The position numbers were made by a program, and so were the translations under genes. DNA of 62,336 nucleotides, counting the filler, from Basidiobolus ranarum (taxonomy: Eukaryota), in assembly GCA_040143965.1 (NCBI GenBank). It is 10 parts of 10 records of this genome, joined end to end, with 100 filler letters (N's around TTAATTAATTAA, not from the genome) between each part and the next. Parts side by side here need not be neighbours in the genome. Positions count along the whole stretch, not along the records: positions 18,765 to 24,912 come from JASJQH010008272.1; 9 more parts are not named here. One strand, 5' to 3'. Positions 1-55,254 of this stretch are shown piece by piece (position 1 is the stretch's first letter; every line of letters starts with the position of its first letter). The notes beneath the pieces were generated by a model. It was not told where the DNA came from. It searched no databases and worked only from the letters and a program-made list of their open reading frames with translations.

Positions 1-1173
1 CTACTTCAGTAAGACCTTCCAGATGATGAACTCCAGCATTTAACTCCAAAGGAATCGTATCTTCATTATTACATTAGTAGCTTTTTATCTTGAGGTACTC
101 GACAAATTTTTCAGTCACCGCTGTTGTAGCAGGTGTTTTACTAAGATTATTTTCAAGCTCTTGTATATAGGCAGGTTTTAGGATTTGTCGAAGCTTCCGA
201 AAGTGTCTTGCTTTCGTTTCAATTGCTCGCTGGTTTCTTATCGAAAAACAGACTTATTTCGAGGAGTACTCGTTTCATGCATACAGTATAAGAGATCACC
301 ACGACCAGGATCGATAAGCACACACTTATCTGTAGTCTTAAGGAATTCATCTTTTGACAACTTTTCAATATAAGGAACACCATCATCAACAGCCTTCATT
401 TTCCAGCAACCGCTTAAAGCGCCTCTTCTGGCTGTGCTAAAGTTTTTTTGAGTATAGACATACCGACTCCGTTTGTTTCAATGGCCACTTCGAACTTCAT
501 TGTCTTGGCATTTTGACTTTTAAGAGCTTGAAAGTTTGGATTAACGACACTACCCCAAATATCGACCTTGTTTCCAGTGAAATTCTTGTTTTTCAATATA
601 TGATAGTTCAAGATATTAGTATCTATTGTCATATAAGAAGGGATAAAGCCTTTTCGAAGTGGGAAGCAGTTAAACGATTTCATATTATTATCTTCATATA
701 TTTTTGGGAGCATATAAAATGCATAGGAAGCAAGTTGACAATATTCTTCTTTATAAGTATTTATTTTCTCTCTCGCCTGACGCACTTTGGCTGAAAGCCG
801 GGATTTGTCGGTCGATCTCTGACCCATTTGTCAACAAGAGACAAAAAGACTTCATGAAAAAATCTTTTGTTACATATTCTTTCAAGCCGAAATCATCGTC
901 TTTAGCAAACTCTTTCATAAAAATGAATTTTAAAAAGGCAAATGTGTGGGTGACAAGGTCGTTCACATTATGAGCCAACTCTTTTAGTACGGGCCTGTAT
1001 TGTTCCTTCCATTTAATGGTAGACACCGACATCTTGACAGTCCTTATTCTCTTAACGCTTGACAAAGAAAAACTCTTTTCAGCTTCCTGTAAAAGGAAAA
1101 GATATACAAGAACAAAAGGTGTGACTGTTCATGTATGTTATTTATTTACCTCTAATGTTTCTTCTCCTAACAT
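1..1173 (-). pseudogene. Fanzor1 (TnpB-like RuvC nuclease) pseudogene, 5' part, with a 63-nt intron
   Basis: Exon 1 is 1173-1150 (MLGEETLE), followed by a GT-AG intron at 1149-1087 and in-frame EAEKSFSLSSVKRIRTVK... Frameshifted blocks follow: CFPLRKGFIPSYMTIDT, FEVAIETNGVGMSILKK, KCVLIDPGRGDLLYCMHE (RuvC-I Asp at 310-312) and RNQRAIETKARHFRKLRQ. It has stops, frameshifts and probably an internal deletion. It is homologous to the copy at 19407-20660. Confidence 0.85.
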
Positions 1174-4100: not shown

Positions 4101-5160
4101 CATACAGGTGGAACAAAACCAAAAGTACCGAAGATCACGACGTCCTATATTCTGATCAGAGAGCTTTTTGTGTGAAGATTGATGGCGTTGAGTCCAGGGT
4201 TTCAGCTGGTATTTGTGATCATAATTGAGGACAATAATCTCAGAAGAACGTCTACAAACTGGTCTCATCTAACATCGCATTGGAGCTGGAAATAACAAGG
4301 AAACTCAGGAGACCTTGTGCTAATCCTGTCCCAGTTAGTGAAGAATGCACTTTTTTGGATAATGGAATGTCCTAGGCCAAGTATGCTTCATCTGAGAACT
4401 ACAAATCAGGCAAATCTTCAGCAACATTATAAATCAACTAAGAAGTCCTTAAGGAGAGAGCCTGCATCATCATAGCACAACCAGCTTCATTCCATTATTG
4501 GAATCCAGGTTGAGTAAGTGCTAAGTGATCTATAGAGCAGATACAGCTGATACTCTGGAATTTGGTTGAGTTCCGAACCTTAGTTGGCAAGACTTAATCC
4601 AATATGGCTCCAAGAGTGATTCAATCGTTCTTATGCAAAACCATGTTTCTTTCACGTATATTATTAGTTGTTTACCATGTCTAGAACTCAAAGACATGGG
4701 TGGATGATTTGAAATCCATTGAAACTGATAAGGATTACCCTCGTACAGTCTAGATGGATTATATAGATTTGTTTAAACAATTACATATAATGTGCCTGGC
4801 AAAAGGCTTGGTAGAGTATAAACAGGCTTGAACATTATTCAATGCTCTAAAAATATTATTGCTGGTCTTTCATCACTAATAGTACCTTTGCTGTTAAAGT
4901 TTGGTATAGGGTTGGGGTATAGATATTCTGGTAAGAAGGGCTCTGGGAAATGCTGTTCTCCTGGTGGAAAATGAAATCAGGGGGTATTGGTAGCAGTATC
5001 TTGGAAATCTGTTGCAAGTGGTTTGGAAAACTAGAGAAATTGGAGGTTTTCACTTAATGCATAAATGAGTGGAAAGTTAATATTTATAGCTTTATCAAGA
5101 GGAAAACAAATCACCAGGTAGAATGGGCTAAAGAAAGACCCAGGAATAAGTGTGCAAAGC

Positions 5161-6157: not shown

Positions 6158-6257
6158 NNNNNNNNNNNNNNNNNNNNNNNNNNNNNNNNNNNNNNNNNNN
6201 NTTAATTAATTAANNNNNNNNNNNNNNNNNNNNNNNNNNNNNNNNNNNNNNNNNNNN
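6158..6257. other. Artificial contig linker
   Basis: 100-nt N run with a central TTAATTAATTAA (stops in all six frames). Confidence 0.99.
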
Positions 6258-7683
6258 CAACAAGCAGCATGCCACTCAATGCACTTCATCGGATTCCTAA
6301 AAATAGAATACACTTCTCCCAGGGAGCAGGCGAATCCCTGTGCGAAGAAAAGGTAGGGCGTCGTAGTGGTTTCTCTAACCATTACACAACCATGCTACTG
6401 GACAAACAATGCGCTCACCTCTTTCCCAAATGTTGTAACTCAAGGCGACTCAGCGTATGGCTGTTAATGCAAAACTTTGTTTTGAGTTCCCAGTATGGTA
6501 GCACTTTTATCCATAAGGATTCAATTCACCTCACATCGTATACATATCATATTAATCCGATTCCATTGCAAGCATCCAAATGCCTCTTACATTACCAGTT
6601 ATTACATATATATACATATAATAGCCGCTGCGGCTATAAAATATGTCATTAAAGTATAGCACTCAAACAATAATATACAAGAATTGGAGTAAATCTGAAC
6701 AATCCTGGATGTGTTGTGATCATATTTCGAATTCAATGGTGTCACTAATGTCCTTAAATGAGCAGTGGCCAACGCTAATGCAGGGGTTCAATTAGATAGC
6801 CTCTACTTAAATCAGTTTGCAACGCTATACAAAGAATACCTCAGGAATTGCAATTGTTGGATATACTCGTTTTCATCGATAATTTAGACTAGTTCTAAGG
6901 TTGAATTTATTGCTGGGAACTGCCATTTAGCGCATGTTTTGAGGGATGTAATCAAGACTAAAACAACTTGGCCTTCTGTTGAGTAAAATTCAATCTAGCC
7001 CGCACTCCTCCCCTGTATGAATTCCATGCAGTGCCATTCTTCTGCATTTTCTCTTGTTTTACCGTGAAACCGGTTTCTCTGAAGACAAACCCCATGAAAG
7101 TACGGGAAATGATTCCTAGCGTGGAAATAAGGCCAAGTGGGTAATTTAAAAGATATATCCCAAGGTCCTCCCCCAACATTTGTAACAGTAGCCACGTTTA
7201 GACAGATGTGGATGATATTGACTTTCGGAATACAACACTCGTTAAATGCTATTTGAAAATGAATTAAACAAGTCAGTTAATCAAGGTAACCTGACCATTG
7301 ACTGCAAGTTTCATCTGTTATATTGAATATGGCGAAATTTTGGACTGGCTACTTGCTGTTTTCAGCCTTCTCATGCTTCGAAAATGGTTACAGGATTTCT
7401 TCAAAATTCTTATCATAACCGGAAAGTAGCAAGATTCTGCTTACATTCATCGGAGACACCATTCCATTCCAATTTCCATACGATACGTGGTTGGTTTATC
7501 TTTGTGTGGCTATAAAAATACCTGCCCGACACCTCATTACCTCTACATTAAATTGGAACGTTCTTGACTCAATTCTCTTGATATTATTTTTCGACTGATC
7601 GAGCCTGTCTCAGCTCAACTATCTCTACGGAATCTTTTCCTTTGCGTTTCTCTTTACATCAAACTTTATTCAGGCCTCAAAAT

Positions 7684-8667
7684 ATGAACGATATAACTAA
7701 GTTCCCCATGGAAAATGTAATTCGGTTGGTCGCTAGGTACCTCAAAGCCGAGTTGAAAAACAATGATATGTATAGCGACCCCAGCGTGACGCTATTTCAC
7801 TCGAGTATCATTCCCGACATCTCCATCAAGTCTTACATACGTCGTATTCAGAAATTCATAACTTTTGGCAATGATAGCCTTGTGGCTATATTGATATATC
7901 TCGACCGTGCCATGAAGTCTGCAAGCGACTTCTATGTGAACTCATATACAATCCATCGTTTACTGATTACTTCCATCACAGTGGCTAACAAGTTCCTCAG
8001 TGATGTCTGCTATCCAAATTCTCGTTATGCAAAGGTAAAGCCACACTTATTTTACTGCCCTCATTCCACATTTTATTGATGTTGTACTTTTTTGCTTTAG
8101 GTTGGTGGCCTCTCTTTGCACGAGATGAACAGTCTTGAACTAGAGTTTCTCTTTATGATAAACTTCGACTTGAACATTCACCCGAAAGAGTTTCTTGAAT
8201 ACACTCATCGTCTATTGAGTTACGGTACCCATGATGTTTCAAATGGGACCTCATCTACCCGGGCTCGCCAGAGACTCACTTCTATGGTAACAGTCCCTAG
8301 CCACAGAGCCACCGATACATCATCATTCTATTCCATCAAGAGAAGTCACTCGGTTCATAATGTATCTCGTTTGGATGGAACCTCAGAGCTGGACAAGCTT
8401 GTTTCTCAAGTAAAGGAGACAATATTAGCGAGACAGCCACCATCTGTGACTATGAAAGAACCAGAAATTCTTAAATCGGCCAAAGATAAGTTGAGGGCGC
8501 TGTTGTCGAATCGCAAGGCTCCTTACAACAATAACAGCCGGACTTCCATTTGTTCCGATAAATCGGAGAATCTTAGCTGCCGTTCGAAGCCAACCCAGTC
8601 AAGACCTCCCTCTTATCATTCGTCAATTATGGATAATCCCATCAGTATGGTTAGTGTGCCCATCTAG
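7684..8667 (+). CDS. Pho80/Pcl-family cyclin, 2 exons (7684-8034, 8101-8667)
   Basis: TLFHSSIIPDISIKSYIRRI, ILIYLDR, IHRLLITSITVANKFLSDVCYPNSRYAK|VGGLSLHEMNSLELEFL. GTAAAG...TTTAG intron joins in frame. Confidence 0.9.
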
Positions 8668-9650: not shown

Positions 9651-12346
9651 ATGCTGACCACTTCAGGTAAGATATTTCGTTCTTGAGGGAACTATCCCAA
9701 GAAAAAAAGAGGACTAATGAAGGCTGTTTTATTGCCTTTACTTTTAGAAAATATCGAAGATATTTCAGAAAAAGTGGATCTAGTCACCACACAAATTGAT
9801 CCCTCCTCGAATATCTTCATTCCAACCACAAATGGTCTTCACTTGACTGAAACGGAGTTAGACTTGATAAAAAAAGATTTACTTCACCGACAGATTCACG
9901 AAGAAATGTTATCGTTAAGAAAATCCATGTCTATCGTACCGTTATTCTTGGACACAAGTCTATTTCAACCACCACCTAAACCAGTGGACACCAATTTCTT
10001 TCGTATTACTTCTTTATTTCGTTCCAATCCACCCACACCTGCCCTTACTCCTGAGCCTTCCACCACCGCGAACTCTTCTAAATCGAGTTTTCTCTCTATC
10101 TCGGATACAAGCATACAAACACCATTGTTGCAATACGCATTCAATAATTTCGTCTGGAATTTCCCATTCTTGGAAAGGGCTGATCAGAGTATTTGGTATA
10201 AAATTCAAGAGTTTCTAAACGCCTTTGGTCGATTAAGATTTGGCACTTATGCTATTAGTGAAGAAGAACTAAGTAAACGTGAAAGGATATCCATGAGAAT
10301 TGAGAGTCTTTTGACTATCCTATTCAATACCGGTATCAGTACCCATAAGAAAATCAAAGATCAACCAGTACATCACAAAGATATCAAAATCCTCCCACGA
10401 AAACCCAGTAGAATTCAAAAGCCTCAATCGACTCTTGTCCAGGTGGAGATAGTAACAGTGAGGAGGGTGGTTGAGCATGGGTATCTTCGAGAGAAGGAGC
10501 ATTCGGTAATGTAAAGCGCATTTGTCGTTTCATCGCCCATATTCTTAACTTGATATATATCAATAGGAGTTCATATTGAAATCACACTATATGGTATCCG
10601 ATGAATCTCTCTATGTCAGTAGAAGATACTCCCGAGTTAAGAAATTCTATGAGAAGGTAGATCGTCAAGATATTTCTATTCGTATTTTCTCAAGTCAGTC
10701 ATATTTACCGGAAAATTGCCGCAGATTAGTAAAGAGTTCCCAGGATTGGACTTGCCTGGTCCACCACATCGGTTTAAAGCCCAGTCGGATGCTGCCCTAT
10801 ATTGTGAGAAAGATCGATTGGCTTTGCAAGCGTATTTGAGGAGATTACTACGTAACCAAGTCGTCGCTTCGAGTCCAACCACAAGGATGTTTCTTACTGA
10901 TTCACCTACTGATCTAACTCCTGAAGATATTCAAGATACTGAGGTGCGAAGGAGATCTGTACAAGCTAGAGCTGAGGAGCATGCGAAATTTTTGAAATTA
11001 GCAGAGCAACAGGCAGAAGAACTTAGGGAAATAACCGACTCATTCGTCCAGGAAATTTCGGAGCCAGGTAGGTGAAATTGTGATGGTTTACATATAATGT
11101 ATACTAGTATCATTGCACTAAGCACTAAATAATCGCGTAGGTGGTCTTAACAAGTTAGCCCAAGCTTTAGAGGCGATATCTGAGGTCGATAAACTGCCGA
11201 TCTCGTATCGAAAAATGATTGAGTTGGCTAGAATTAAGTAAGTGATTTTATCTTCTCTTGGAATATATCTAGTCTTGGTGGTTAATGTGCATATTACACC
11301 GATCTCTATAGTCTTGCCTCTACTCTGTATCGGATATTCTGTGCGGAAGAAACTGCGGTTATTCATTTCCAACAATTGCGACAAGCCCATGGAATGATTC
11401 CTTATCGTGCCCTAAAGGGGATTTTGATGATATCCAATCCTACGACCATGATGAAAGCAGTATTGGATCTGTTCTTAGCACAACCATTCGGTCAGCCTAG
11501 TATCCTTCAGCGGTAAGATTGTGAAGAATATGTTTGATTGATATGCTATTAAGACTATATATTCGCTTAGTGTGGTTAGCTCTAATCTGAGCGATTCGTT
11601 GAAAAAGAAAAAGAAAGCCATCGAAGAGTTGAGAGTGATGATTAAAGATGAACATTTGTGTGACCGCGTACATAACTATGTATACTCTTCAGAAGAGCAG
11701 TGTTACGACGATGATGTAGGTATGTAGCATTTGAATTTACTTGACTTATAACGAACAAGGTTTAATCAAACGTCCTTAGGAACGTCCAATTTGGACAAGC
11801 TCCTACGTGTCATCCGGGATGGTAACGACAATTCAACGGAAGTTAGCTCGATAACGTTAATGAAATTGTGGAGTGCTAAAAAGCACTTGGATGTTACTAA
11901 CCGCTCCAAAGAACTCCTGGAAGCTACCGATTCTCTGGAAGGGTTTAACGAGTCCGAAATTATGCTGAAGAACTTGCATAAGTTTATGTTCCTAAGTACA
12001 CAAGTTAGAAATACCGAACTTACTATGGATCTAATATTTGAAGTCAGTAATTGGGAATATCTACACCCTCACTCACTCTCTCTCTTTCTTTGTCTTTCTC
12101 TCTAACCTCAATCCCTTGTATTTAGGGTATTACTGGAGAACTCTTAAAAGATATTCTCTCTGTCTTCTATCAACCATTAGCACAAATCTACAAGGTAAGT
12201 AAGTCATCTTGTCGCTTACACTCGATGAAAGTGATATTAAATCGAAGAAATACCTAGGACGCAAATATCAGTGATTTTGTTATAGATGGACGCAACTTTA
12301 TCGATAAACTAATCAAAGTAGTTGAGGCTAATGATATCGAACGAGG
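9651..12346 (+). CDS. PX-domain protein with PX-associated domains (YPR097W/Lec1-like), multi-exon, 3' truncated by contig end
   Basis: Exon 1 ATGCTGACCACTTCAG|GTAAGA; PLLQYAFNNFVWNFPFL; PX motifs VSRRYSRVKKF, EFPGLDLPGPP and EKDRLALQAYLRRLL; several GT-AG introns. Confidence 0.8.
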
Positions 12347-12412: not shown

Positions 12413-12512
12413 NNNNNNNNNNNNNNNNNNNNNNNNNNNNNNNNNNNNNNNNNNNNTTAATTAATTAANNNNNNNNNNNNNNNNNNNNNNNNNNNNNNNN
12501 NNNNNNNNNNNN
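12413..12512. other. Artificial contig linker
   Basis: N run with central TTAATTAATTAA. Confidence 0.99.
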
Positions 12513-14330: not shown

Positions 14331-14641
14331 CCATTCATCTTCCAATTACTGTATCCCTCCCTTAACCAGATGAGTAGTGGTTTTGCCCCTTGTAAGGATC
14401 TTGTAGGTTAGATCAATATTAAATATTGGTAATATTCAAGTTAAACACCATCTCGGATATTATATGTATTTGTATGTTTTTGCCGAATTAGTTGCTGATT
14501 TTTCCGGCTCATGGGGATTAATATACGACAAACATCCAAAATTGGGTTATTTTTCCGAGTCAAAAAGATATAAATATCGTTTGATCGAATACTGAATTTT
14601 ATTAAATACGTTTTCAATTCTCAACAAAATCAATTGGAGTT

Positions 14642-15511
14642 ATGAGCGTTCAAAGATATATCACCAGCACAGTCGAAGCTATAACCAAGCCGGAAGGGAA
14701 TGGCGCTAGAGTCAGAAGGAGTATTGGCACTAGTGCGCTCAAAAACTTTGATCCTTTCCTAATGCTGGATGAGTTTATGGTGGACCCACCTGCTGGATTC
14801 CCCGATCACCCACATCGCGGTTTTGAGACGGTTACTTACATGCTCGATGGAATAGTTGCTCATGAAGATTTTGCAGGTCACCAAGGCACGATTGGTCCGG
14901 GTGATCTTCAGTGGATGACTGCTGGCCGTGGTATTGTGCATGCGGAGATGCCGCAAACTAAGTGCCGGGGTCTTCAATTATGGGTAAACTTGAGTGCCGT
15001 TGATAAAATGTGTGAACCGCGTTATCAAGAGCTTCTAGATAAGGAGATTCCAAGAGTATCGCCTCCTGGAGTAGATGCTGTGATCAAGGTTATTGCTGGT
15101 AATTCGTTTGGAGTGAATAGTCCTGTAGTTACCAAAACACCTACCATGTACCTAGACTTTAAGGTTGGAAAGAACTCCAAACTTGAACAGCTGATTCCGG
15201 AGAGTTATCAAGGGTTCCTGTACATATTGGAAGGGGAGGGATATTTCGGCTCACAAGATACTCTCGGGAAAGCACATCACACATTGACACTTAGCGAAGA
15301 GGGGGGCGTGCTCAGTATCGAGACCAAGGACAGTACTGTGCATTTTGTACTTGTAGCTGGTGAGCCCATCAAGGAGCCAATAGTGCAGCATGGACCATTT
15401 GTCATGAACCATGTCGACGATATAAAGCGCACATTCACTGATTATCGTATGGGTATTAATGGTTTCGAGAGAGCTCGCACATGGCACTCAAAGATTGCGA
15501 ACCGTTATTAA
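14642..15511 (+). CDS. Pirin (bicupin, quercetinase-like), intronless, 289 aa
   Basis: DPFLMLDEF, GFPDHPHRGFETVTY, QWMTAGRGIVHAEMP, GEPIKEPIVQHGPFVMN. Confidence 0.95.
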   Translation: MSVQRYITSTVEAITKPEGNGARVRRSIGTSALKNFDPFLMLDEFMVDPPAGFPDHPHRGFETVTYMLDGIVAHEDFAGHQGTIGPGDLQWMTAGRGIVHAEMPQTKCRGLQLWVNLSAVDKMCEPRYQELLDKEIPRVSPPGVDAVIKVIAGNSFGVNSPVVTKTPTMYLDFKVGKNSKLEQLIPESYQGFLYILEGEGYFGSQDTLGKAHHTLTLSEEGGVLSIETKDSTVHFVLVAGEPIKEPIVQHGPFVMNHVDDIKRTFTDYRMGINGFERARTWHSKIANRY

Positions 15512-18664: not shown

Positions 18665-18764
18665 NNNNNNNNNNNNNNNNNNNNNNNNNNNNNNNNNNNN
18701 NNNNNNNNTTAATTAATTAANNNNNNNNNNNNNNNNNNNNNNNNNNNNNNNNNNNNNNNNNNNN
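18665..18764. other. Artificial contig linker
   Basis: N run with central TTAATTAATTAA. Confidence 0.99.
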
Positions 18765-19067
18765 AACGATGATCCTTTTCTCTAGTTGATTGTATCCAAT
18801 ATAACCAGCCATTTCCGTTTCTTGACTTTCAAAATAGCTAGTAACATTGAGGTCCCCTACGCATCGATCCCCACAGGACCAATCCTTAATTTTGTCTTCA
18901 AGGCAGTATGCAGCTGAAGCATATTTGGCTGAGGTCTTTAACATGGCCAAGACGGAGCTCTCAATCGGGTAATACGGATCAGCAGGCTTTGAGGATTTAT
19001 CCCAATCCCCCCAGGGGAAAGAGGTTGCGACACCAAAAAATACAAGATAAATGCAGTGGAATAGCAT
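18765..19067 (-). CDS. Secreted class-3 lipase, N-terminal part (truncated by contig end)
   Basis: Signal peptide, then AKYASAAYC...WSCGDRC...GYIGYNQLEKRIIV, typical of fungal class-3 lipases. TATA-like element near 19101-19108. Confidence 0.8.
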
Positions 19068-19406
19068 GATCAGGTAGAGATTTAGCAACAACTGCGGAGG
19101 TTTATATACAGTTACTTCAAGTAGAAGCTCTAAAGATTCAGCGGGGAATATACATTTACCGAGAACATTTATAATCTAGACACTTTTTGGGCAGCAAGCC
19201 TTTTTTGAATATCATCAACCTATGATCGTTAGTTACGTTATATACTGATTTACTCTATCCAAGATTTCAAAAGTAGCTAGATGCATCAAAGCTCAAACAA
19301 TGTATTTCATATCGGCTCGAAAGTGAAAGTCAAATTCGAAGTAAAATGTAATTCTTTAAAAATTCAAGCTTACGAAGTGTTCTAAGACTTACTCTGTATC
19401 TAATAT

Positions 19407-20660
19407 TTAGTGTAGCGATAACCACACAGGATTATTTGCTTTTTGAGTAGGTCGACTGCTGCTAGCTGACAAGATACCCTTTCTTTTATACTCGGTGGAG
19501 AGCGGTTCCTTCAATCAGCAAAAACGTTCTGGTCTTTCCCCAGTTGTGCGCAAGTTAAAAAGGATATGTCTAAAGCTCAAAGTAGCAGCCAGGTCACAAT
19601 TCCAAAGATGAAGGGGAGAGTCTTCGGTAGTATTGGACACAACCTTTAAACACTGTTGGTTTTTGTACCTGAACAGAAATTAGGTTGGAATTTTTCACTT
19701 GCATATAAAAAGCGTTTACCTTAAAAGGCCGTGACGATTTACAATAAGATACTTTTCTCTTTTGTATGGTCTAGGATTTTGTACTTTTTGAAACTTTTCC
19801 AGTTCACCGTTCTGGCAAGTAGGGCACAGACTTGAAGTTTTAAACTCGTCAAGGAGGTATAGCTGGAAACTTTCTTTGACTAACATTTTTCTCATTCCAA
19901 CGCCTCTATTGGGCTCATGTTACTTTTCATTTCCAGCTGATCAGTCACCAAGTATTAATATAGTATCATTCCCAAACTTCTCTCGAAGATTCTTGGCAAG
20001 CCGTTTGTCTGATTGTAGTTGGCTAATGAAACTTTAGAACTTCATTTTTCTAAAAGGTAACAAACCGCTGGTACGCCGGTCTTTTCCTGTAGGGTAATAA
20101 TCTTCATTTGAGTAATATGCTCTCATGACCGGAGTGACTTTGGATTTTGTTGAAGATACTTGGCAAAATTGTCTTTGTTGGCAGTTGAAGATTTAAAATG
20201 GGATATGACTTGGTCTGTCTTTAAGTTCTTTCTGAGCTTCCTGAATTTTCTGTACTTTGTTTCAATTGCTTTTGGGTTGCTTGAATATTGGTAAACCATT
20301 TTGTTTTCAGCGGTACTTTCTTCGTGCATATAGTACAGCAAATCGCGCCGTGCAGGATCAATTAGCACACATTTGCCAACACCAGCCTTCAGCTCTTCTC
20401 TTCCCAACTTCTTCACATACGGAAACTCCTCTTTTTGAAGCAAGATACTTTAATTTTGCGCCATTACCACCCTTCTTCTTTGTATTATGGTTTTGCTTTA
20501 ACACCGACACACCTACACCATCTGTGTATATCATACCTCTAAACTTCATTGACTTGCTTTTTCCTTGCCGTTTCATTGCTTTTGATGTGAGGTCAATAAC
20601 GGTTTCCCATTCTGCTTCTATATCCGAGTGGCTGGTGTTGGAATTCTTTAAGATAAAAAA
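19407..20660 (-). pseudogene. Fanzor1 pseudogene, 3' part, with all RuvC motifs, zinc finger and a 51-nt intron
   Basis: FRGMIYTDGVGVSVLKQ; KCVLIDPARRDLLYYMHE (RuvC-I D at 20357-20359); ILGD*; YLLDEFKTSSLCPTC (E at 19845-19847 plus CxxC); RHGLLR|YKNQQC across intron 19719-19669 (GTAAAC...CTAAT...CAG); LWNCDLAATLSFRHIL (RuvC-III D at 19593-19595); GERPERFC. Several stops and frameshifts. Confidence 0.9.
19412..19515 (-). ncRNA. Putative Fanzor omegaRNA scaffold / element right end
   Basis: Lies directly 3' of RuvC-III. Possible stems GAGTA/TACTC, GTC/GAC and a terminal ATAATC-CTGTGT-GGTTAT hairpin. Terminus GGTTATCGCTAC resembles 62302-62336. RNA identity is inferred from position. Confidence 0.45.
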
Positions 20661-20879
20661 CTATGGGTCCTATCCAAATCATTTGAGCTGAGAAATTCTT
20701 TAGGTATGTCTTCAATATTTCTTGACGAAATAGCCTGCTTGACCTTATTTATTTGCTCTGTTATTGTCTTTATGACTGCCCTAATCTCTTTCTCACTTCC
20801 TCCATTCTTCTTCATCTTGCTGTCCAGTTCCTTGCTTATTTCCTGAATGTTGCCAATCCTAAATCATTTGCACTTGATC

Positions 20880-21250
20880 TTGACATGCACAATTCCCCAA
20901 AAGAGGTTGTGTATCAGGATATTGCTCATGTTTATAATGATTATAAATTAGTATCTTGGACCACAGGTGAGCATTTCTTGCCCTCTCTTCTCACAAACCC
21001 AGTTTACCGACATCTTTGATTCTTCTACAGAAATGTGACTCAGTCCTGACCACACAATGGTCGTCATTTTCTGATATGACACATGCTATGGCAGGAATAG
21101 CACCAGTAACGGTAGTACACCTACTACCATCACTCAAGTTGGACCAAAAGAGTCTATCTCCTGCAACGGGATATTTTCAACTACCCTCTTCAGAGTCCTT
21201 GTACTTTAAGCATAGACATCTCCGACTTTTCAATTGCTTTGATCAAAAAG
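20880..21250 (+). pseudogene. Decayed glycosyltransferase C-terminal fragment (fucosyltransferase-like)
   Basis: DIF/ILLQKCDSVLTTQWSSFSDMTHAMAGIAP and PSSESLYF resemble the D-x-x-LLS-x-C-D...S-T-F...G-x-x-P motif of GT37/GT23-type fucosyltransferases. Frameshifted and CpG-poor. Confidence 0.4.
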
Positions 21251-22197
21251 GTGATGATAGCACTGGAACGATCTGGCTCTATTGCAGGGTTTTGTGGGAA
21301 ATTTTGCCTACACCATGATAGTGTCTTCCATTCATATCTTTCACTTGTCGTGTGGGACACATCGTAGACTATATACTGGACAATTGTGCATGCCATGATG
21401 ATATCGGGAGTGGCAGTAGTAAGTATGATGTCTTAGAAATCCATGTCAACACTATATGATACGTATTAAGCAATATGCCCTTGGTTCCAGTGTTCCATTT
21501 CATTTGAGCAAATAGCACGTATTATGGCTCAAAACAACAAACAGACTTCCAATTGTACTACTGACAAAATGTGGCTTACTTAATCTTCCCTACAGGTATT
21601 AACTATTAATTTGCTTTTACTTTTCGATCAAGTGGATAGCTACGTCATCTGTTTTAAGTTGGAAATCGCAAAGGTTAGCTTGTTGCAGTTTCGTGGTTTT
21701 ACAGTTACAAATGTTTCAGTATTCATTCATGAATTCTATTTATATTCATCAAGTTCTATACATAGAGTGCTTGAAAGCCAATAGCTTGATTTGATAGAAC
21801 CCCAGTCACATGACCTAAGCTAAGACAAGTCGCAACTTTATTGCAGCAGGATGCTTCGCACGCCGATTCAATTATCGTGAGTCTTGTATTGCTCTTGACT
21901 GCTTGTTTTCCAATCTGAGCCAATAGCCAAAAATTTACCTTTATGTGTCATTAAATCCGCCAGCAACGCCAAATGTTTCAGTGTAGAGTCTTAGCCAATC
22001 TAATCACTTGTTTGATTATCGTAGTTTAGAATATAAACAGCTTTGGATAAGTAACAACACATCCATCGTCACAAGTAATCAACACCTCTATCATCGCAAG
22101 TAATCAACACTTCTATCACTGTAAGAGACCAGTCTGATGATCAACCAAGTATATGCATTTTCTTTTTTTCTTACTAGACCTTTCTTTAATTTAGATA

Positions 22198-22464
22198 ATG
22201 ATGATTCCAAACCTACGTGTTCTATGTCTCTCTGTATTCCTTCTATTCGCCCAGGTCAGCGGAGATGATGTTAATTCAGTTTGTACAGTCGCAGGGTTCA
22301 AGGTGGACTATTCAAAAATAACCAAATGCTGCTTAAAAAATGTTGGAGGTTCAAACTTCAAAAATAACCGGGTGATATGCACACTTCCAGTTGGGAAAGA
22401 AGGTTATTTTAGAAGATGTGTAAAGCGGTTGGGATATGCTACTTCAGTAGAGTGCGATTATTAG
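22198..22464 (+). CDS. Small secreted cysteine-rich protein, 88 aa
   Basis: Signal peptide ending AQVSG; mature part has 6 Cys (C-x14-CC-x15-C-x12-C-x11-C); probable 5'-UTR intron 22121-22177; AATAAA downstream. Confidence 0.85.
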   Translation: MMIPNLRVLCLSVFLLFAQVSGDDVNSVCTVAGFKVDYSKITKCCLKNVGGSNFKNNRVICTLPVGKEGYFRRCVKRLGYATSVECDY

Positions 22465-23791
22465 GATTTCCAGTTTTGGTTCATATTCTCGTAAGAAAGA
22501 GTAGAGTAGTTTTGTGTAGCAATTCGATATTTTTCTACAATAAAAAAAGGTTAGTTTAAAGAACTTGACAAGTTATGGTGTGATATCTTACCAACAAAAG
22601 GCCCTTACGCATCATAGCTGGTTACGAGTTGTGAAAATAGTAGTCATCACTAAATTAACTACCTTAATTGAAAGTAGTATTAAACTTCTCTTCAAGTTCT
22701 GGTATTAAGTAAAATGTTTGCAAAACTAATCATGCAGTACATTTGTGAGTGAATAGCTGCGAAAAGCTTATTGAAAAATCTAAAAAATCATACATCTGGT
22801 TTAGCACATTTTCTATGCTGAAAGGGAGCATTTGATATGGAAGCAGTAATTATATAGCAAGCAAAGTACGCTAATAGTTTATCACGTATACCAGATAGGA
22901 GCATCATATCAGGATCAGCTTGTAAGGATTGGCAACTCGGTGCCTACAGTTCATGCTAGGGTTGAATGAGTCTTAGGTTCAATTCCTCACATAACCAACA
23001 ACTCTTCATATTTACTTTGAATAAACTGCCAGTTTTTTGGATATTAGAGTTCAAGCCAAATTATCTATTATCAATAGTCCACATTTTGGAACTTTACTAA
23101 CACTCTACATACCTTACTATGTTTATTTGCAACACAAAAAATAACATACGTATCATCTATATTATGACAAGAACATATATTCTTATTGTTATTTATCAGT
23201 ATATTACTAGCAATATATTGCATTGTAGATAAGATACATGTCCATACCAATAAATATCTGGAGTACTATTACTATATGCAGTGGCAAAAAACACCCAGTT
23301 GCTGTTTGCACAGTTAGTTATGTGAGCAGAAAAAGCTGTTTGTAACATATATACTCCGCAGCTAGCTTTATGTTTTACAATTCTGCGACAAAAATCTCTA
23401 AAATCTCATAATACAGAGTATGCAACTTCTCCTTGCTAAAGCAGGGTCACTGGAAACAGTACTTAAGCCACACTATCATAACTCTCTGATACTTGCTTTC
23501 ACTGTTAGTTTATTTTATCAGTATGGTGAGATAGACAAGGATTGAATCCATATAACAGTACATATATGCTCAAAAAAACTGGAAAGCTATTGTACGGTTT
23601 CATTAAGTAGGCCATTACTCTGTATAGATAGTCCCTTAATTATTGTTTAATGCTCAAGACTGATTAAACACTATCAGGAGTTGTACTTCAGATGCGGTCT
23701 CGTGTATATCTCATCAACTAGAGCTAACTATAAGGACACAACAGTATTGATTGACAGAATCGTGAACAACGGCTCATATGATCGTAAGTAC

Positions 23792-23818
23792 ACTACTACT
23801 ACTACTACTACTACTACT
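23792..23818 (+). repeat. (ACT)9 microsatellite
   Basis: Nine perfect ACT units. Confidence 0.95.
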
Positions 23819-24912
23819 GGGATCAGGTTGGATTTGACCAACTTACCTCAGATTAAGTTGGTAAATAATCTTAGGTTTAAATTTTCGAGTAAATATTTAG
23901 TATTCACCATCGAATTCATTCAAATTAGATAACATTAAAAATTTTATCAATCAAGGTAATATATATGATAAGCAAGTACGACAATGGCGACAATCGTAAC
24001 TCACGTAATATACAGTTGAAAGGTAAATTGCACATCAAGATAATACTCAGAATTTGGAAATAGAAATAGCAAATCATAACATATCTATATTCTCTATCAT
24101 ATACTAGGTTATATAGCATATCTGTACATCATATACTACGTGGCAATCAACCCCAAAAAGAAATAGATAAGAAACGATAGGATTAAAAACGTGTACGTGT
24201 GTGTGTGTGTTAGGGTTAAAAGCGTGTACGTGGTAAAGATTCAGAAATTCCCAAAAGAGTGTATCATCCTTCAACATGACTATAGTTACGAGGAAGCAAC
24301 AATAAACCAAATGCGTGAGTAGCAACACTTGAGTAGCAACAACACCAATTCGATTGAGTTTCTTAACAAAAGGGGATCATATACTTCTACTCCTGTCTCT
24401 GAACCGCTTTACTTCTACTCCTATCTCTGAAACTCTTTCCTTGCTAATAGAATTCCATTTTTAGTTAGTTTACCCCCTCAATGGCAATAAGAGCAGCTGA
24501 TACGTGGAAAATATCTATCACTTGGCCTGAATAACCGATGATTATTGGATGTCTCTGCTCCGATTAGTTCTGGAATTGGATTGTATGTTTATAACATTTG
24601 ATGAGGGAATTTAGGCCATTGACACGTTGGAATTAGGAAAACTTGAGATGAATAAAATTAGGTTATTCAGCATTTCTATTAAACTGGGCTGTAGATGTTG
24701 TATGAAAATTATTAATCTCTATCGGATTTTATTAGCAAAATTTCGTTTTTATGTATCGGGATGCACATTCCACAATATACGACTAGCGTATCAGGATGTG
24801 GGTTTTAGTTTGGGTCGTTAAACGCAACCGCTTCCAAATACAATATCCCAGTATTTGAGATGAGCTGCCACACTCATAGTGTACTGTCCAGCATTACAAT
24901 TGGGATCTTCAA

Positions 24913-25012
24913 NNNNNNNNNNNNNNNNNNNNNNNNNNNNNNNNNNNNNNNNNNNNTTAATTAATTAANNNNNNNNNNNNNNNNNNNNNNNNNNNNNNNN
25001 NNNNNNNNNNNN
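24913..25012. other. Artificial contig linker
   Basis: N run with central TTAATTAATTAA. Confidence 0.99.
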
Positions 25013-31157: not shown

Positions 31158-31257
31158 NNNNNNNNNNNNNNNNNNNNNNNNNNNNNNNNNNNNNNNNNNN
31201 NTTAATTAATTAANNNNNNNNNNNNNNNNNNNNNNNNNNNNNNNNNNNNNNNNNNNN
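31158..31257. other. Artificial contig linker
   Basis: N run with central TTAATTAATTAA. Confidence 0.99.
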
Positions 31258-37399: not shown

Positions 37400-37499
37400 N
37401 NNNNNNNNNNNNNNNNNNNNNNNNNNNNNNNNNNNNNNNNNNNTTAATTAATTAANNNNNNNNNNNNNNNNNNNNNNNNNNNNNNNNNNNNNNNNNNNN
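37400..37499. other. Artificial contig linker
   Basis: N run with central TTAATTAATTAA. Confidence 0.99.
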
Positions 37500-43638: not shown

Positions 43639-43738
43639 NNNNNNNNNNNNNNNNNNNNNNNNNNNNNNNNNNNNNNNNNNNNTTAATTAATTAANNNNNN
43701 NNNNNNNNNNNNNNNNNNNNNNNNNNNNNNNNNNNNNN
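43639..43738. other. Artificial contig linker
   Basis: N run with central TTAATTAATTAA. Confidence 0.99.
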
Positions 43739-46006
43739 TCCTAAAGCTTCCAAATCGGAAATCTTGTTTTGCCGGATGTCTAATTCTTTCAGATTCACCA
43801 ATGACCTGACAGCCTGTGGAAGCGAGCCGGATATAGTATTCGAGGCGAGGCAAAGATGTTCCAAGTGTACTAACTTTCCGATTCCATCAGGGATAGAAGG
43901 GATCTTGTTGATTGACAGATCTAGAAACGATAAACTTATTAGACTGCAGATAGCTAACGGAAACTCAGTAAACTTGTTGTTCGACAAATTGAGACAAGCT
44001 AGTGTGGTAAGGTCAACGAATTCCCGGGGAATCGTATTGATACGGTTGTTACAGAAATTTAAATCCGTCAATTCTCTGGCGTAATGCAACTGAGCAGACT
44101 CAATCTCTTTAAGACGATTATTTGACAAGTCAAGGCGAAGCAATTTTGGTGTATGTCGAACACTACTTGGAACGTATTTATAACCGTTTCCACTCAAGTT
44201 GATTTCCCGCAAGTTGGAACAAAGTTGAACAAAATCTAAGGGTAAGTCCAACATGAGGTTTTTGGAAATATCTAGCGTTTGGATTGTGGTAGTGTGTCGA
44301 TATAGTAAAATTGGGATGGTTTGAAGGTTTCTTGCTTGCAGGTCAACATGTCGAAAGCTCCCGAGTTCACTCTCCTTTTCCTACAATCAGAAGGCGATTT
44401 TATGAATTGATGTCAAATGATTTTGAAAGATATTTGCATGTCCATACCAAGTTGATGGATTGAATACCAGCCAAACCAAAGGTGAATCGGCAAAGATATG
44501 TATTATCTTCACGCCCTTGGTCCTTCAATTGGTCTTCAGATGTGTATCCAATTTGCTCAAGCAAACGCTTAAAGTGATAAATAGGTCGCTCCTGCGGACC
44601 AAGAATTCTAACTAGAGAATTGACAGCAATTACTACCAAGCCAAGATGAGATTATTAACGACAGGCGACAGAATATTACCTAATCCATTCCTCTTCATAT
44701 ATAGGTTGTACTTGGAGGCATCTGACAAAAAGAATTTCCTGGCAAGTATACTACAAAGCTCGGCAGTGGTTATTTGTACCGGAACTGTTACCGTTCCAAA
44801 AGTGCTATCTTCTCGAAACACACGTATACAAAGCTACAATTCAGTTAACAAGAATGAAGCTTGGTTACTTTAAAATCCAAGAATAAGAAGTTACCTGTTC
44901 AGTCGACGGTGAGGGTTTCTCTTTTTGAACTACTTTCTCATGAGGATAACCACAATCCTCATCATCTGACGGCTCTGCTTGATCTGATGCTAGGGGTACT
45001 ACTGACCACGATTGTGGTGCTGTCCAGAGTACTCCTTGCTTTGAAAATTCTTGAGCAAGGGCTGCTTCTAAGTTATCTGACTCTGGAGGTTCGATAAAGG
45101 AGGCTGTATGGGATCCATTCTGCGATTGAGCTAAAGCTTCTGGGCTAATAATACCATTCATATCAACTGATAAAAGATTAGATATTGACCAGGTGAAAAG
45201 TTACATTACTGAGTTGACGAAACCAGTATTAGGTAAATACTTACGTTCAAAACCTCCACGAATCCCATCAAACTGTAATAGTGTACGTATAAATATTCAA
45301 GATATTCAGTAAAAGCAAAGCAGACAGCAAAAAAGGGGTATATACCGATGTCAAGTCATGTTGTGGGGTTCTCAAAAAATCTCTGGACCAACTTTTTTGA
45401 GTCGAGTATTCGGAAGAAGGGTCTCCTTGATGGAAGGATTTGTGAGAACTTTCGTCTCTCTTGCCAACAGCTAAAAAATAGAAAGAAAAACTAGGTTAAA
45501 GGGAATCTATCATGTTTTACTCTAAAAAGTAGAAAATCACCTTCAGTGTGCTCAGCAGCTTCTTTACTCTTCTTTCCTACAAAGGGAAAGAATTTCTTTT
45601 TTATCTTGCTCCTCTTGGAGGAAGAGGGGGAATCAGAAAAGTGGGATAGACTTGAGAGTGTGATACTTGAATTACGGAATTTGGATCTTTTTGAAGAACC
45701 TTCCAGAGGTGAAGAATAGATACTCGAACCTGGAGTACTAGGATTAGAGTGGTCATTTTGAATATCAGAGGGTTTAGGAAAGTCGGAGTTTCTCGTATCT
45801 GGTGAGTTACTATCGAGGGAGGAAGACCGGTGTGAACCAAAAAAGAAAGAAAACAAAGATTCATCTTTACTCTTTTTTACGCGTTTCTCGGATAGAGATA
45901 ATACAGAAGAAGTTGGCGAGGGAGGTCGATCATATGGATCTGTTCTGTGATAAGAGGGAGATGTTTCGTGATTCGACTTTGAACGGTTTATTGTCGAATT
46001 TGACAT
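43739..46006 (-). CDS. CYR1: Fungal adenylate cyclase, N-terminal half (G-alpha-binding region, Ras-association domain, LRRs), multi-exon, truncated
   Basis: WTAPQSWSV; IRVFREDSTFGTV...LARKFFL; RILGPQERP...LEQIGY...GREDNTYLCRFTF; HVDLQARNLQTIPILLY; LDLPLDFVQLC followed by LRRs. Confidence 0.9.
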
Positions 46007-49875: not shown

Positions 49876-49975
49876 NNNNNNNNNNNNNNNNNNNNNNNNN
49901 NNNNNNNNNNNNNNNNNNNTTAATTAATTAANNNNNNNNNNNNNNNNNNNNNNNNNNNNNNNNNNNNNNNNNNNN
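49876..49975. other. Artificial contig linker
   Basis: N run with central TTAATTAATTAA. Confidence 0.99.
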
Positions 49976-50472: not shown

Positions 50473-52128
50473 TATTACATATCTATAGCGACAAATAAGG
50501 TTCGTTTTGTAATATATCATATATAATTTTCATTCTTATCTAATAGAAAAAGCGAAACCCTGATAAACGCCAATATATACTACATGGTTTCAGGGTTAGC
50601 CTACATAACTTGGGCCAAAGTTAATAGCAAAGTGATTGAGCAGTATCTGGGAAAAATTGATTAATCGTATCGCAAATGGATACCCGGTACATAAATCCTA
50701 ATTCAGTAGCAAACAGTAGACCTATTTTTGCATACATGCAGGAAGTGGGCGAATCGATGAGTAATTTAAACATTACAGTGAATATTGCCTCATAGTGACA
50801 TAATGTCTGTGCCTCAGCAGGATACTTTCAATGTCACAAGATATTACATGCAACTATGGAACTTGTGGTTGTAGTGTGACTGTACAGTATGAGGCAGCCG
50901 AGATTCACAAGGGAGTATGATATGCAAATATATTTGCCAAGGTAACAAGTTACCATAACATGAAAATTCTGTCGTTCAGACCATTGTATATGTTCGAAAT
51001 CTGTCACTACGCTCTAGGCTTAAAAGCTCACTCCATACTTATACCCAATTTTCTGGTATCTTGGCGACCTACACTTTGGTAAATTGATCAACTTGACCAA
51101 AGAAGGTAGCCACCCGGTCATTCGTTGTTTCTCTTAGAAGGAACAAAGCTATAAAGTACACCTAATACAATGGAGGAAATCAGTTGAAAATAAATTCCAT
51201 ATTTAGCTATCTGGAATAGATCGATGAGTCTATTTTAAAGTTTGCGAGAAGAAGCACGTGAAAGTGTAGTAGAAAGACTGACTAATACAGAATACAGGGA
51301 GCTAGCTACACCAGTCCATACTATGTGACATGTATGTAGACGGATTACAAATGATTACCTCTATTCTACAGTTGCAGCTGCCATGGAGATTTGATCTTCT
51401 GGCAGGATAATCCTTAGTACAGTGGATAGACTATTGATCAGATGAAATCTAATACACTATAAAGATATCATGGAGAGATAGTTAAAGTATTGATCAAAGG
51501 CAGTTGAAACTTTGTCTTGAGTAATAAAGATACCCGCTCGCACTCTTCCACACGTAATTTATAAATGCACACTCAAACTCACACATCATCTTTGCCTTAC
51601 TTGTTAGTTTCTTGCACAGAAAATAGGCACACAATGTGCGATTTTTAGAGAGTATACTCAGACAGATATTTCCAACCAATGTGCAACTGTGCATTGGAAT
51701 TGACATACACTAAGGCCTCGCTTACCTGAGCCGCATATTCTAAAGTACGGATGCAATGGTGTATCTTACCGTATTAGAGATCAAGCTCGGGCGGCGTTGC
51801 ATGGAAGCATTTTCACACTGAGTGTATGAAGACTTTATGCAATAGAAACTAGTTTCATGCCTAAAAACCACAGAATTATCTATAAGCAGTTTCAACTCGG
51901 AAGTGGTAGTGAGGCTACAGGTCGTTTGAGGATGTACGGATCCTAATGAAAGCCATTTCTGTAGGTTGCATGAGCAAGTTCACAAGAGGGATCGACTATG
52001 ACTCCGCTACCTATCATCTGAAACGCTTTCGCTCAGATAACCAGATGATCCGGGGCACTGTGTGGTAGGCCTTTCTGCTTAATATCTTTCCTTTCTCTTC
52101 GTGGCCCTGAAAACAAGTCAGCTACAAT

Positions 52129-55100
52129 ATGAGAAGTCAAACATGTGCTCTGATTTCTACTAAATATACTGTTCAAACTGCCATTCTATGTTTACTATTG
52201 TATTCCTGTGTTTTCAATCTTGTCTCTGAACCACTACTTTCCCACAATGATATTACTATCGTTTACAATGATAATCAATTTACACCCGTTGATCAACTTG
52301 AAGGCTGCCACAAAAGTGAATATATTCGACATTTATACTTGAAACCGATCTTAATTTCCTCCTCCAAGTATTCTCTTCCAGATGCTGTGGTCCCTTCTAT
52401 TGCTGAACTGAATGAATATCTCTCGAAATTTTTGACTGTTACCGATGCTACTGGATCTTATTCTTATGAAAATAGGCTATGCCTCAAGCTTACTCGTTCG
52501 ACATGTGTTTTCTCCAAAATCGATATACTGTATTCGAGCCCTCCTACCTTTGTTCTCTCTTACTTTTTTGAGAGCACAAATGAAAAAGAAGAGAATCTTA
52601 TTGCACTATGGGAGCATAGAGCTACGATTACTCATTTTCCGAGTATCGTTTCGCAAGGGCCTGCCTCCTACTGTACAACCACCGGTAGGTTGCTACATCA
52701 CGGCGTTTCAAACATTGAAAAGCTGATAGATCGAGTAAAGAGTCTCAAGGTCTCACTTACTTTAATGGCACATGTATTAGTACAAGGAACAGTCGTTCTT
52801 CTTTTAACTACCAAGCGTGATCCCAAACCAAGATTTTCAATCTTTGTAGTCACCATGATATCCTTTGTATCCACTTTCACACTTGCCCTTGCTGTTGTTA
52901 GTGCCTTAAACCTTCCTATCAACCTTATTATACTGTGTAAGGCAACTCCAATCTTAATTTTTACCCTTGGATTCGAGAAATTTTATATCGTAATGAATAC
53001 ATTCGTATTTGCTAGATCATTTGGAAGCTTTGAAGTAGCTACCAACTGTGACACTAGAGGTTTCACTTCTTTCTCTGTTCAAGGCATCGTGCAGTCGGTC
53101 TATCATGGTGTACGGAGCAACATTCTTAACAGCTGCATGTTAGAGATTATGCTGTTGGTTTGTGGTGCGCTTTCCTACATACACGGTCGGAGGGATTTAT
53201 GTGCCTTAATTGCCTTCATCATTGTTTTCGACTGTAGTTTTCTCATCAATTTCTACTCTATCACCGCTATCCCTAATATCGTCTTGCTCCATAGCAATGG
53301 AGAAGGTGGTGAAAAAGTGTCTAACGGTGTTTGGCCTTCGAAACATGAAACTTGGGGGAGATATGTACATGTAAATTCCCCTATAGGTTGGATTAAGATA
53401 TTGGTGGTCTTTGGGCTTTTGGCAACTCATGTTTACAGTCTCAGCAATCCTCTGATTGATTCCTGTAATCAAAGCCCTAGTAGCACGTCGCTAGACCTTA
53501 ATGATCCATCAATCAAGTCTGGCCTCGAATTTCTTATTTCTAACTATAGGTCGCTTCAACTGAATTTCCCTTTTACTGTCAACATTTCAAAGCCGTTGGT
53601 ATTCCGTCATGTTGACTCTGAGTTCAGTATTAGAAAATTGATGGATCATTTTTACGTTATTATTGACATTTGTAAGAGTACCATCGGCTATATTTTGATA
53701 TGCGCCTGTCTGGTGGTCTCATTGATCTTCAACATTAACCTTTATAATCTCTCTAAAACTAAGCCTTGCGAGCCTGAAATATACACTGATGTTTCTAATT
53801 CCACAAAGATCGCTCTTCTAGAAGCCCTTCAATTATCGCCATCTACAATAGCCGCCTCCTACAAACAGTCTGAAGCTCTGGCCAAGTCCTGCGAACAATC
53901 TCAAGTTCTGACCAGAGAAAAGGGGTCTGTAGATGATGCTGTCCGTCCAGTTGATCAGTGTATTGGTATACTTCACTCAGAAATGGGGCCAAATGAATTG
54001 ACCGATGCTGAAATATTGAATCTTATAAGTGGTGGGAAAATTGCGCCATACACACTGGAAAGAGTTTTACAAGATCACGTTCGCGCTGTAAAAATTCGCC
54101 GTGCTTTTATTTCCCGTTCGTCGACTAATAAGACACTTGAGAGCAGTATGCTGCCCGTGGACCACTATGATTACGCTCAAGTTATGGGGAAATGCTGTGA
54201 GAATGTCATCGGGTATACCCAGATTCCTGTAGGGATTGCTGGGCCATTGTCCATTGACGGAGACCTCTATCATATTCCTATGGCCACCACTGAGGGCTGC
54301 CTTGTTGCTTCTACTACTCGTGGATGCAAAGCAATCAATGCTAGTGGAGGCGCCATAACAATTTTAACTCATGATGGTATGGCCAGAGGGCCTGTTCTCA
54401 AATTTTCAAATATCTCCAGCGCTAACACTTGTAAGATATGGATCGAAGGGGAAGGGTTCACTTTTATAGCAAAAGCATTCAACTCCACCAGCCAGTATGC
54501 AAGATTAACGAAGCTTCGAGCTACATTGGCCGGCCGTTTAATGTTCTTAAGGTTCGTAACCACTAGCGGAGACGCAATGGGCATGAACATGATATCTAAA
54601 GGAGTGGAAAAAGCGCTCATTATTATGAAAGAACAGTTTCCTGAAATGCGACTAATATCGTTGAGTGGGAATTTTTGCACGGATAAAAAATCCGCTGCAA
54701 TTAACTGGATTGAAGGTAGAGGAAAATCAGTTGTAGCTGAGACAGTGATTTCTGGAAAAGTCGTTGAGAAGGTACTCAAAACATCGGTCAGCGACATAGT
54801 GAAACTGAGTATCTCCAAGAATCTGGTCGGTTCAGCAATGGCTGGCTCCATCGGGGGTTTCAATGCGCATGCTGCTAATATCCTTACGGCCATCTTCATT
54901 GCTACCGGGCAAGATCCCGCACAGAATGTGGAAAGTTCTAATTGTATTACACTGATGGAGGCGGTTCATGATGGTCGAGATCTGCTTGTAACCTGTACGA
55001 TGCCATCTGTCGAGGTAGGTACGATTGGAGGGGGGACTCAATTGGCACCGCAATCTGCTTGTCTTGATATTCTCGGGGTATCTGGACCACATTTATCTAG

Positions 55101-55254
55101 CCCTGGAGCTAATGCTCAACGTTTAGCCCGCATAATATGTGCTGCTGTCATGGCTGGTGAACTTTCATTATGTGCAGCTTTAGCCTCCGGAGACTTGGTG
55201 AAATCCCATATGAGTCATAACAGAGCTCAGTCATCACCAACCACGCCAGAGTAG
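52129..55254 (+). CDS. HMG1: Class I HMG-CoA reductase with N-terminal membrane/sterol-sensing region, intronless, 1041 aa
   Basis: [61 protein letters not shown]. Confidence 0.95.

Follow-up and report, generated by a model that had tools for sequence, protein, structure and literature searches.

What remains of a Fanzor1 gene in the genome of Basidiobolus ranarum, a fungus, and could any of it still function? The question is raised by a locus on the minus strand of a 62,336-base stretch of DNA from GenBank assembly GCA_040143965.1 (hereafter the window, meaning this stretch at its full length), in which a preliminary description made from the bare sequence had recognised the motifs of Fanzor1 (Fz1). 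Experiments on intact members of this family have shown them to be omegaRNA-guided DNA endonucleases that make double-strand cuts and depend on a target-adjacent motif (TAM) (PMC10432273, PMC10530073, PMC11423790). In this literature the Fz1 protein is described as binding an omegaRNA transcribed from the 3' inverted-repeat end of its element, and the complex as cutting TAM-flanked double-stranded DNA through a RuvC site composed of an Asp in RuvC-I, a relocated Glu in the loop ahead of the TNB zinc finger and a second Asp in RuvC-III. The B. ranarum locus is in all probability a dead, truncated relic of this known family.

The window consists of ten contigs of about 6.15 kb each, joined by linkers of the form N44-TTAATTAATTAA-N44, in keeping with the 6,132-base contig on which its HMG-CoA reductase protein is recorded. 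As it is a chain of separate short contigs, features on different pieces are not to be regarded as genome neighbours; the Fz1 relic sits on the 6.1-kb piece at 18765-24912 (JASJQH010008272.1). A 262-residue read-through translation of the relic (P0001) was used as a phmmer query against 1.84 billion representatives and matched 1281 proteins at E<=1e-3, of which 422 reached E<=1e-10 and 36 reached E<=1e-30. Among all PDB chains, the matches at E<=0.01 were limited to 9cf0, the Parasitella parasitica Fanzor 1 (PpFz1; E 3.8e-37, residues 44-225 of the read-through), and 8gkh, the Spizellomyces punctatus Fanzor 1 (SpuFz1; E 2.8e-16), and with these values the proposed Fanzor1 identity is confirmed. 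A full-length relative from Coemansia (P0028) matches PpFz1 across its whole length with an E-value of 9.7e-101, and the RuvC fold of the locus is taken from the strong match to the solved Fz1 structures. The best 150 of the 1281 phmmer matches were examined and ten were looked up, seven of which carried an organism name: Basidiobolus ranarum (77% identity, partial), Rhizopus delemar, Phycomyces blakesleeanus, Helicostylum pulchrum and Coemansia spp. Pfam gave only sub-threshold matches for seven open reading frame (ORF) pieces of the locus. The LLDEF...CPTC piece reached 13 bits (E 0.12) with PF07282 (Cas12f1-like TNB), whose cut-off is 26.3; the same family matches full-length or near-full-length relatives, likewise below threshold, at E 1.7e-4 to 0.053 in seven of the ten scanned, the metagenome locus L001 included. 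From the phmmer, PDB and named-relative matches it follows that the locus derives from a Fanzor1 gene of the zygomycete-fungus Fz1 clade, to which PpFz1 belongs.

DNA relatives were sought by a pattern scan, based on a 6-row alignment, of JGI metagenome contigs. It matched 250 stretches, nine of which encode relatives and represent nine loci. L001 (4,815 bp) is the closest DNA relative among these, with about 78-80% identity over 1.46 kb. For the extent of the relic, 11 full-length relatives were combined into a 694-position profile, which was searched against six-frame pieces of the window. The locus matched profile positions 156-219 (20863-20651), 288-350, 365-471, 459-508, 510-539, 548-614 and 612-665, and in this search positions 1-155 and 220-287 had no counterpart at the locus. 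The motif coordinates of the preliminary description were correct, but the range given there, 19407-20660, was too narrow, since the remnant spans 19378 to about 20863. Its parts are listed below.

19378-20863, minus strand: whole Fz1 pseudogene remnant, covering about 445 of the 694 profile positions.
20651-20863, minus strand: N-terminal (REC-like) fragment and 5' limit of homology (profile positions 156-219, E 3.6e-5; residues 147-215 of the relative P0154).
20357-20359, minus strand: GAT codon, intact, of the RuvC-I catalytic Asp in CVLIDPARRDLL.
19845-19847, minus strand: GAG codon, intact, of the relocated catalytic Glu in LLDEFKTS (LLDEFKTSSLCPTC), its role as given in PMC10530073 and PMC11423790.
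19815-19826, minus strand: CPTC, the first two Cys residues of the TNB zinc finger, still intact.
19665-19667, minus strand: third zinc-ligand Cys, now Tyr (TAC; TGC in L001).
19593-19598, minus strand: RuvC-III, LWNCDLAA, with Cys TGT at 19596-19598 (Arg CGT in L001) and the catalytic Asp GAC at 19593-19595 intact.
19378-19409, minus strand: 3' end, with the terminal stop TAA at 19407-19409 and a tail of about 29 nt homologous to L001.

The locus is read in three pieces, frame A from 20660 to 20358, frame B from 20449 to 20123 and frame A again from 20192 to 19407. IDPARRDLL lies in frame B, and ILGD-TGA, LLDEFKTSSLCPTC and HGLLR lie in the last frame-A stretch. All the motifs listed in the preliminary description are present on the minus strand, as verified codon by codon against L001, and its statement that the D-E-D triad is retained holds for GAT, GAG and GAC alike. 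These Asp, Glu and Asp codons align with conserved columns of the relatives; that the residues are catalytic is known from published work. The strand presumed to hold the canonical RuvC-II position of TnpB reads ILGD(W), where the relatives have LGNWS or LGDWS, which is consistent with the Gly/Pro substitution described in PMC10530073. Of the four Cys residues of the TNB finger, which is complete in relatives, three persist, two of them in CPTC and the final one at 19650-19652; the ligands are assigned from conservation. Further upstream, no Fz1 match was observed in 20864-22100, so that profile positions 1-155 have no counterpart there.

The lesions of the locus were listed by a codon-by-codon comparison in the frame of L001. 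A global DNA alignment of the two gives 1188 matches and 286 mismatches (80.6% identity), and blastn pairs 19378-20654 with L001 4404-3088 (78%) and 20655-20842 with L001 2882-2695 (77%). The gap between L001 2882 and 3088 therefore indicates a 205-bp deletion in the window at 20654/20655, by which the conserved CFPLR...IP.Y..ID block and profile positions 220-287 were removed. The lesions that disrupt the frame are as follows.

20654-20655, minus strand: junction of the 205-bp deletion (L001 2883-3087), with the frame shifted and about 68 codons gone.
20441-20444, minus strand: 4-bp insertion, a frameshift between ORF pieces 20358-20660 and 20123-20449.
20144-20146 (near 20145), minus strand: 1-bp deletion that returns the frame to the first, between ORF pieces 20123-20449 and 20034-20192.
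20034-20036, minus strand: premature stop TAA (TCA, Ser, in L001).
19941-19943, minus strand: premature stop TGA in ILGD(W), on the strand of the presumed canonical TnpB RuvC-II position (TGG, Trp, in L001).
19920-19922, minus strand: premature stop TAA (TAT in L001, Tyr of the KYHEP motif).
19515-19517, minus strand: premature stop TGA (AGA in L001, Arg also in the relatives P0004 and P0010); the relatives' frame continues to 19407.

Indels that keep the frame relative to L001 measure 3, 18, 3, net 12 and 6 bp. The copy had been described as inactivated, and this is borne out by four stops, three frameshifting indels and the N-terminal loss; the stops TAA at 20034-20036, TAA at 19920-19922 and TGA at 19515-19517, the 4-bp insertion, the 1-bp and 205-bp deletions and the N-terminal loss go beyond the earlier account. 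That several lesions are simple transitions is true for three of the six point lesions relative to L001 (TGG>TGA, TGC>TAC and CGT>TGT), but the other three are transversions, and the three frameshifting indels and the 5' truncation are not of this kind at all. The window copy has kept its three catalytic codons and the intron of its clade, but no protein can be produced from it, because the N-terminal third and a 68-codon block are absent, three indels shift the frame, four stops interrupt it and a zinc ligand is lost.

It could be argued that the locus is a functional gene and that its lesions are assembly errors or unrecognised introns, as the assembly is fragmented into contigs of about 6.1 kb, L001 too has one frameshift that is possibly an error, and the three catalytic codons are intact. 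However, L001 reads through every lesion site, so the lesions are not conserved introns, and they are too numerous and too varied for errors, comprising four stops by substitution, the 205-bp deletion, the loss of the N-terminal third and changes at two invariant residues. A functional gene is therefore considered very improbable, and a dead relic is the reading preferred here.

The mode of decay can be followed in the same comparison. The 446 codons comparable with L001 include 230 identical, 77 synonymous and 139 non-synonymous ones, which gives a ratio of non-synonymous to synonymous substitution rates (dN/dS) of 0.295 with dS at 0.54; most of the divergence between the two lineages therefore arose under purifying selection, with the decay of the window copy coming later. 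All aligned columns together hold 178 transitions and 108 transversions. The observed/expected CpG ratio (19378-20870) is 0.58 in the window relic against 0.80 in L001, and at two point lesions, CGT>TGT and possibly CGA>TGA, a CpG present in relatives has undergone a C>T change. The lower CpG content and these changes would fit a methylation-linked decay. The active consensus suggested earlier cannot be formed from the window, which holds only this copy and one divergent, truncated relic. Such a rebuild is also unnecessary, because near-intact natural relatives exist in L001 and the full-length database proteins.

The intron reported inside the zinc-finger region bears on the lineage of the element.

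19669-19719, minus strand: spliceosomal intron of 51 nt in phase 2, GTAAAC...CTAAT...TTCAG, with GT..AG ends and a CTAAT branch-like motif.

On the minus strand, the upstream exon ends in HGLLR AG, the intron runs GTAAAC...TTCTGTTCAG, and the downstream exon begins with G and continues as YKNQQC; read from 19719 to 19669 with a longer intron end, the same junction is AG, GTAAAC...CCTAATTTCTGTTCAG, G. The intron is substantiated by L001 and by L004, a metagenome entry for the same locus as L001; in both, the corresponding codon is interrupted by a 59-nt GT..AG intron alignable with the 51-nt intron of the window. The exon past the intron reads TGC AAA AAC CAA in L001 and TAC AAA AAC CAA in the window. 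The P0001-PpFz1 alignment jumps exactly the 17 intron codons, which spliced relatives lack too. Two further metagenome loci, L002 and L003 (about 40% protein identity), have no intron at this place, and in the other five the intron region was not found by motif scan. When the best 150 phmmer matches were sorted by the residues that follow HGLLx, 70 led on directly to the Cys motif and are thus spliced or intron-less, 13 ended at HGLLx or at most 12 residues on, several of them with a Tyr codon that fits a G/GTA splice site, and 15 read on differently, some with an in-frame insert ahead of the Cys motif; 52 of the 150 showed no HGLLx motif under the regular expression used. Thus, the intron after HGLLR is conserved in one Fz1 subclade, and it explains many truncated database gene models that end there. 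As it is missing from the more distant L002 and L003, this phase-2 intron may be a derived trait whose sharing marks out one subclade of zygomycete Fz1. The acquisition of introns by Fanzor genes in general is described in PMC10530073.

The intron also bears on the origin of the locus, which might be sought in bacterial TnpB contamination or in the Fanzor of an integrated giant virus, since Fanzors derive from TnpB and occur in giant viruses too (PMC10432273, PMC10530073). TnpB (IS200/IS605, IS607) and Cas12f are described as sharing the RuvC and TNB zinc-finger architecture and the RNA-guided mechanism, whereas the window locus differs from them in its sub-threshold Pfam similarity, relocated Glu, spliceosomal intron and eukaryotic host. 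Against either origin, the locus contains a spliceosomal intron, the named nearest relatives are all fungal, the solved matches are fungal Fz1 only, the Pfam TnpB-type models remain below threshold in a eukaryotic context, and a pattern scan of IMG/VR returned 30 pattern matches with no confirmed relative among them. A bacterial or viral source is thus extremely unlikely, and the descent of the relic from a fungal Fz1 gene is retained.

If the locus was once part of a transposon, how much of that element is left? The Fz1 gene of L001 is near-intact, with a single intron and one frameshift that, judging by frame translations, seems to fall in a run of T. It lies between inverted repeats of 135 nt (1721-1855 and 4446-4580, 89% complementary) that bound a unit of 2.86 kb with no transposase inside. 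Outside the repeats, 0.8 kb from the left one, a 301-codon ORF (L001 1-906) resembles the phage-integrase family of tyrosine recombinases (PF00589) at 20 bits and E 6.4e-4, short of the cut-off of 27.1 bits. The 9-bp sequences that flank the repeats differ from one another, and a TA target-site duplication is possible, though ambiguous. The homology between the window and L001 breaks off abruptly at 19378, 42 nt short of the right inverted repeat of L001. No inverted repeats were found around the window relic, where a blastn-short search with the L001 repeat yielded only chance-level matches of 10-16 nt and the best inverted pair nearby is 23 nt long at 83%. Elsewhere on the 6.1-kb contig there is no transposase-size ORF and no ORF of at least 70 codons with a family assignment, and the recombinase-like ORF of L001 has no match on this contig. 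Signs of residence in a transposon, namely inverted repeats and a transposase, are absent from the two flanks, of which 613 bp and about 4 kb respectively were covered, and the earlier statement that no transposase is adjacent holds for the 6.1-kb contig only.

The remaining possibility of function lies in the RNA. The PpFz1 omegaRNA is 75 nt long with a first stem of 7 bp and a second of 4 bp, and was obtained by cloning the ORF with its predicted 3' inverted repeat (PMC11423790). Rfam, which has no model for this RNA, gave no match in L001 or in the relic contig. As flanking repeats like those of L001 are absent from the window, we infer that the omegaRNA-encoding part of the element was lost from this copy. 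The relic might nevertheless have been exapted, its 3' end serving as a 'ghost' guide RNA used in trans or as a regulatory sequence for the ORF that starts at 19067. Ghost omegaRNA loci devoid of an Fz ORF are described from S. punctatus (PMC10432273), and 311 bp separate the end of the relic from a downstream ORF whose start resembles a signal peptide. Moreover, about 45 nt past the L001 stop codon are conserved between the window and L001 to about the same degree as the coding sequence, and this tail, along with a hairpin whose pairing is kept, would favour such a use. However, the cloning of omegaRNA relied on a 3' inverted repeat (PMC11423790) of a kind that the window does not have, the folds score z -0.60 and 0.16 against shuffles, none of ten pairs shows a compensatory change, and this genome is not known to contain an intact Fz1. 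Exaptation is accordingly given very little credence, and equally little is given to its specific form in which the 3' tail and hairpin would still encode a ghost guide-RNA scaffold used in trans by intact Fz1 copies; if this were true, cleavage or binding would be aimed just downstream of the relic, upstream of the neighbouring ORF.

Some observations nevertheless weigh against a dead and truncated relic, or against details of that reading. The hairpin, of 6-7 bp, lies across the stop codon and remains paired in both the window and L001 despite two one-sided changes, so that part of an RNA element could survive. The folds of the window 3' tail and of the L001 right repeat with its tail are no better than shuffles (z -1.36 to +0.55), and a two-sequence consensus fold of the window and L001 contains 10 pairs with 0 compensatory changes. 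The ends of the element are defined by one independent DNA relative, as L004 has flanks identical to those of L001, represents the same locus and is therefore not independent. Some of the small indels could also be assembly errors.

Comparison with known systems places the relic within a described family. For zygomycete fungi, both a catalogue and a biochemical characterisation of Fz1 have been published (Bao & Jurka 2013; Saito et al. 2023; Xu et al. 2024). PpFz1 (PDB 9cf0-9cf3; Xu et al., Cell 2024, PMC11423790), a fungal Fz1 and the best solved match, has a demonstrated TAM-dependent, omegaRNA-guided DNA cleavage activity (PMC11423790) and shares with the window copy the motif order LGNWS / LIDEFxTSSxCPxC / HGLLRCxNxxC / WNRD. 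In contrast to the window copy, PpFz1 is intact, and it carries a FRI insertion of about 100 residues in RuvC that is missing from the window copy, L001 and most relatives. L001 and the window have in common the intron position, an alignable intron sequence and the stretch of about 45 nt past the L001 stop, whereas the full N-terminus, the single frameshift, the inverted repeats and the recombinase-like ORF are found in L001 only. SpuFz1, or SPu-1 (PMC3627910; Saito et al. 2023, PMC10432273; 8gkh), belongs to the same family and is more distant in sequence. The SPu-1 element is described as encoding nothing but the Fz protein, flanked by inverted repeats of which the 3' one gives rise to the omegaRNA (PMC10432273, PMC3627910), and its gene as a single ORF (PMC3627910), unlike the clade of the window with its intron in the TNB region. 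Among zygomycetes, Bao & Jurka (2013, PMC3627910) describe many degenerate Fz1 copies, some of them in transposase-less elements with MuDR-like inverted repeats, one Mucor family that adjoins a partial Crypton recombinase, and four families in Rhizopus, three in Phycomyces and ten in Mucor. The nearest protein matches of the window include Rhizopus delemar and Phycomyces, the likeness to the named Bao & Jurka elements being by description only. In the library searched, no paper pairs Fanzor with Basidiobolus and three pair it with Rhizopus; supplementary locus tables may already include this lineage.

The gene model P0004 (Basidiobolus ranarum KAK9764880, 181 residues, 77% identity), which is the nearest named relative, likewise lies on a decayed copy. 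Gln replaces its catalytic Glu, Phe replaces one zinc-finger Cys, and the RuvC-III segment is absent. An NNPVW extension is common to P0004 and the window relic, at a place where L001 has a stop codon.

The other features of the window are listed below.

6158-6257, 12413-12512, 18665-18764, 24913-25012 and 31158-31257: linkers, N44-TTAATTAATTAA-N44.
37400-37499, 43639-43738, 49876-49975 and 56108-56207: linkers of the same form, continued.
77-1128, minus strand: second, more divergent Fz1 relic, on the first contig, its protein 40-52% identical to that of the relic at 19378-20863.
18765-19067, minus strand: ORF with a hydrophobic, signal-peptide-like start that begins 311 bp downstream of the relic end and is cut by the contig end.

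The second relic belongs to a different lineage. It retains profile positions 6-84 and 246-470 but not 85-245, contains a frameshift and is cut by the end of its contig. For the ORF at 18765-19067, Pfam and a homologue search returned no family and no homologue; an identity as a lipase, guessed at first, was dropped, as nothing in these searches pointed to it. The region directly upstream of the relic (20864-21432) has no Pfam family and no Fz1 profile match, and no homologue was found among longer proteins, which is weak evidence. A weak 23-nt inverted pair there (83%; 20877-20899 and 21377-21399, enclosing 477 nt) might represent a small inserted element, or chance.

Ordinary eukaryotic genes occupy other contigs. 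HMG-CoA reductase (52111-55254, plus strand) is a single ORF of 1047 codons, whose catalytic part has its closest matches in Basidiobolus meristosporus (78%) and B. ranarum (77%); Glomeromycotina and Umbelopsis come next, with about 70%. The others are a pirin (14606-15511, plus strand), a PHO80-like cyclin (7582-8667, plus strand) with a 66-nt GT..AG intron read from the raw sequence, a PX-associated domain protein (9687-10514, plus strand) and a leucine-rich repeat (LRR) protein (43691-44380, minus strand).

Taken alone, the relic matters little, being one more decayed Fz1 copy accompanied by a second relic on another contig. As published work would lead one to expect, Fz1 is widespread and often degenerate in early-diverging fungi, and the locus fits this pattern. 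The practical use of the analysis lies in the subclade intron after HGLLR, which accounts for the database gene models that end there, and in L001, a near-intact natural relative with 135-nt inverted repeats.

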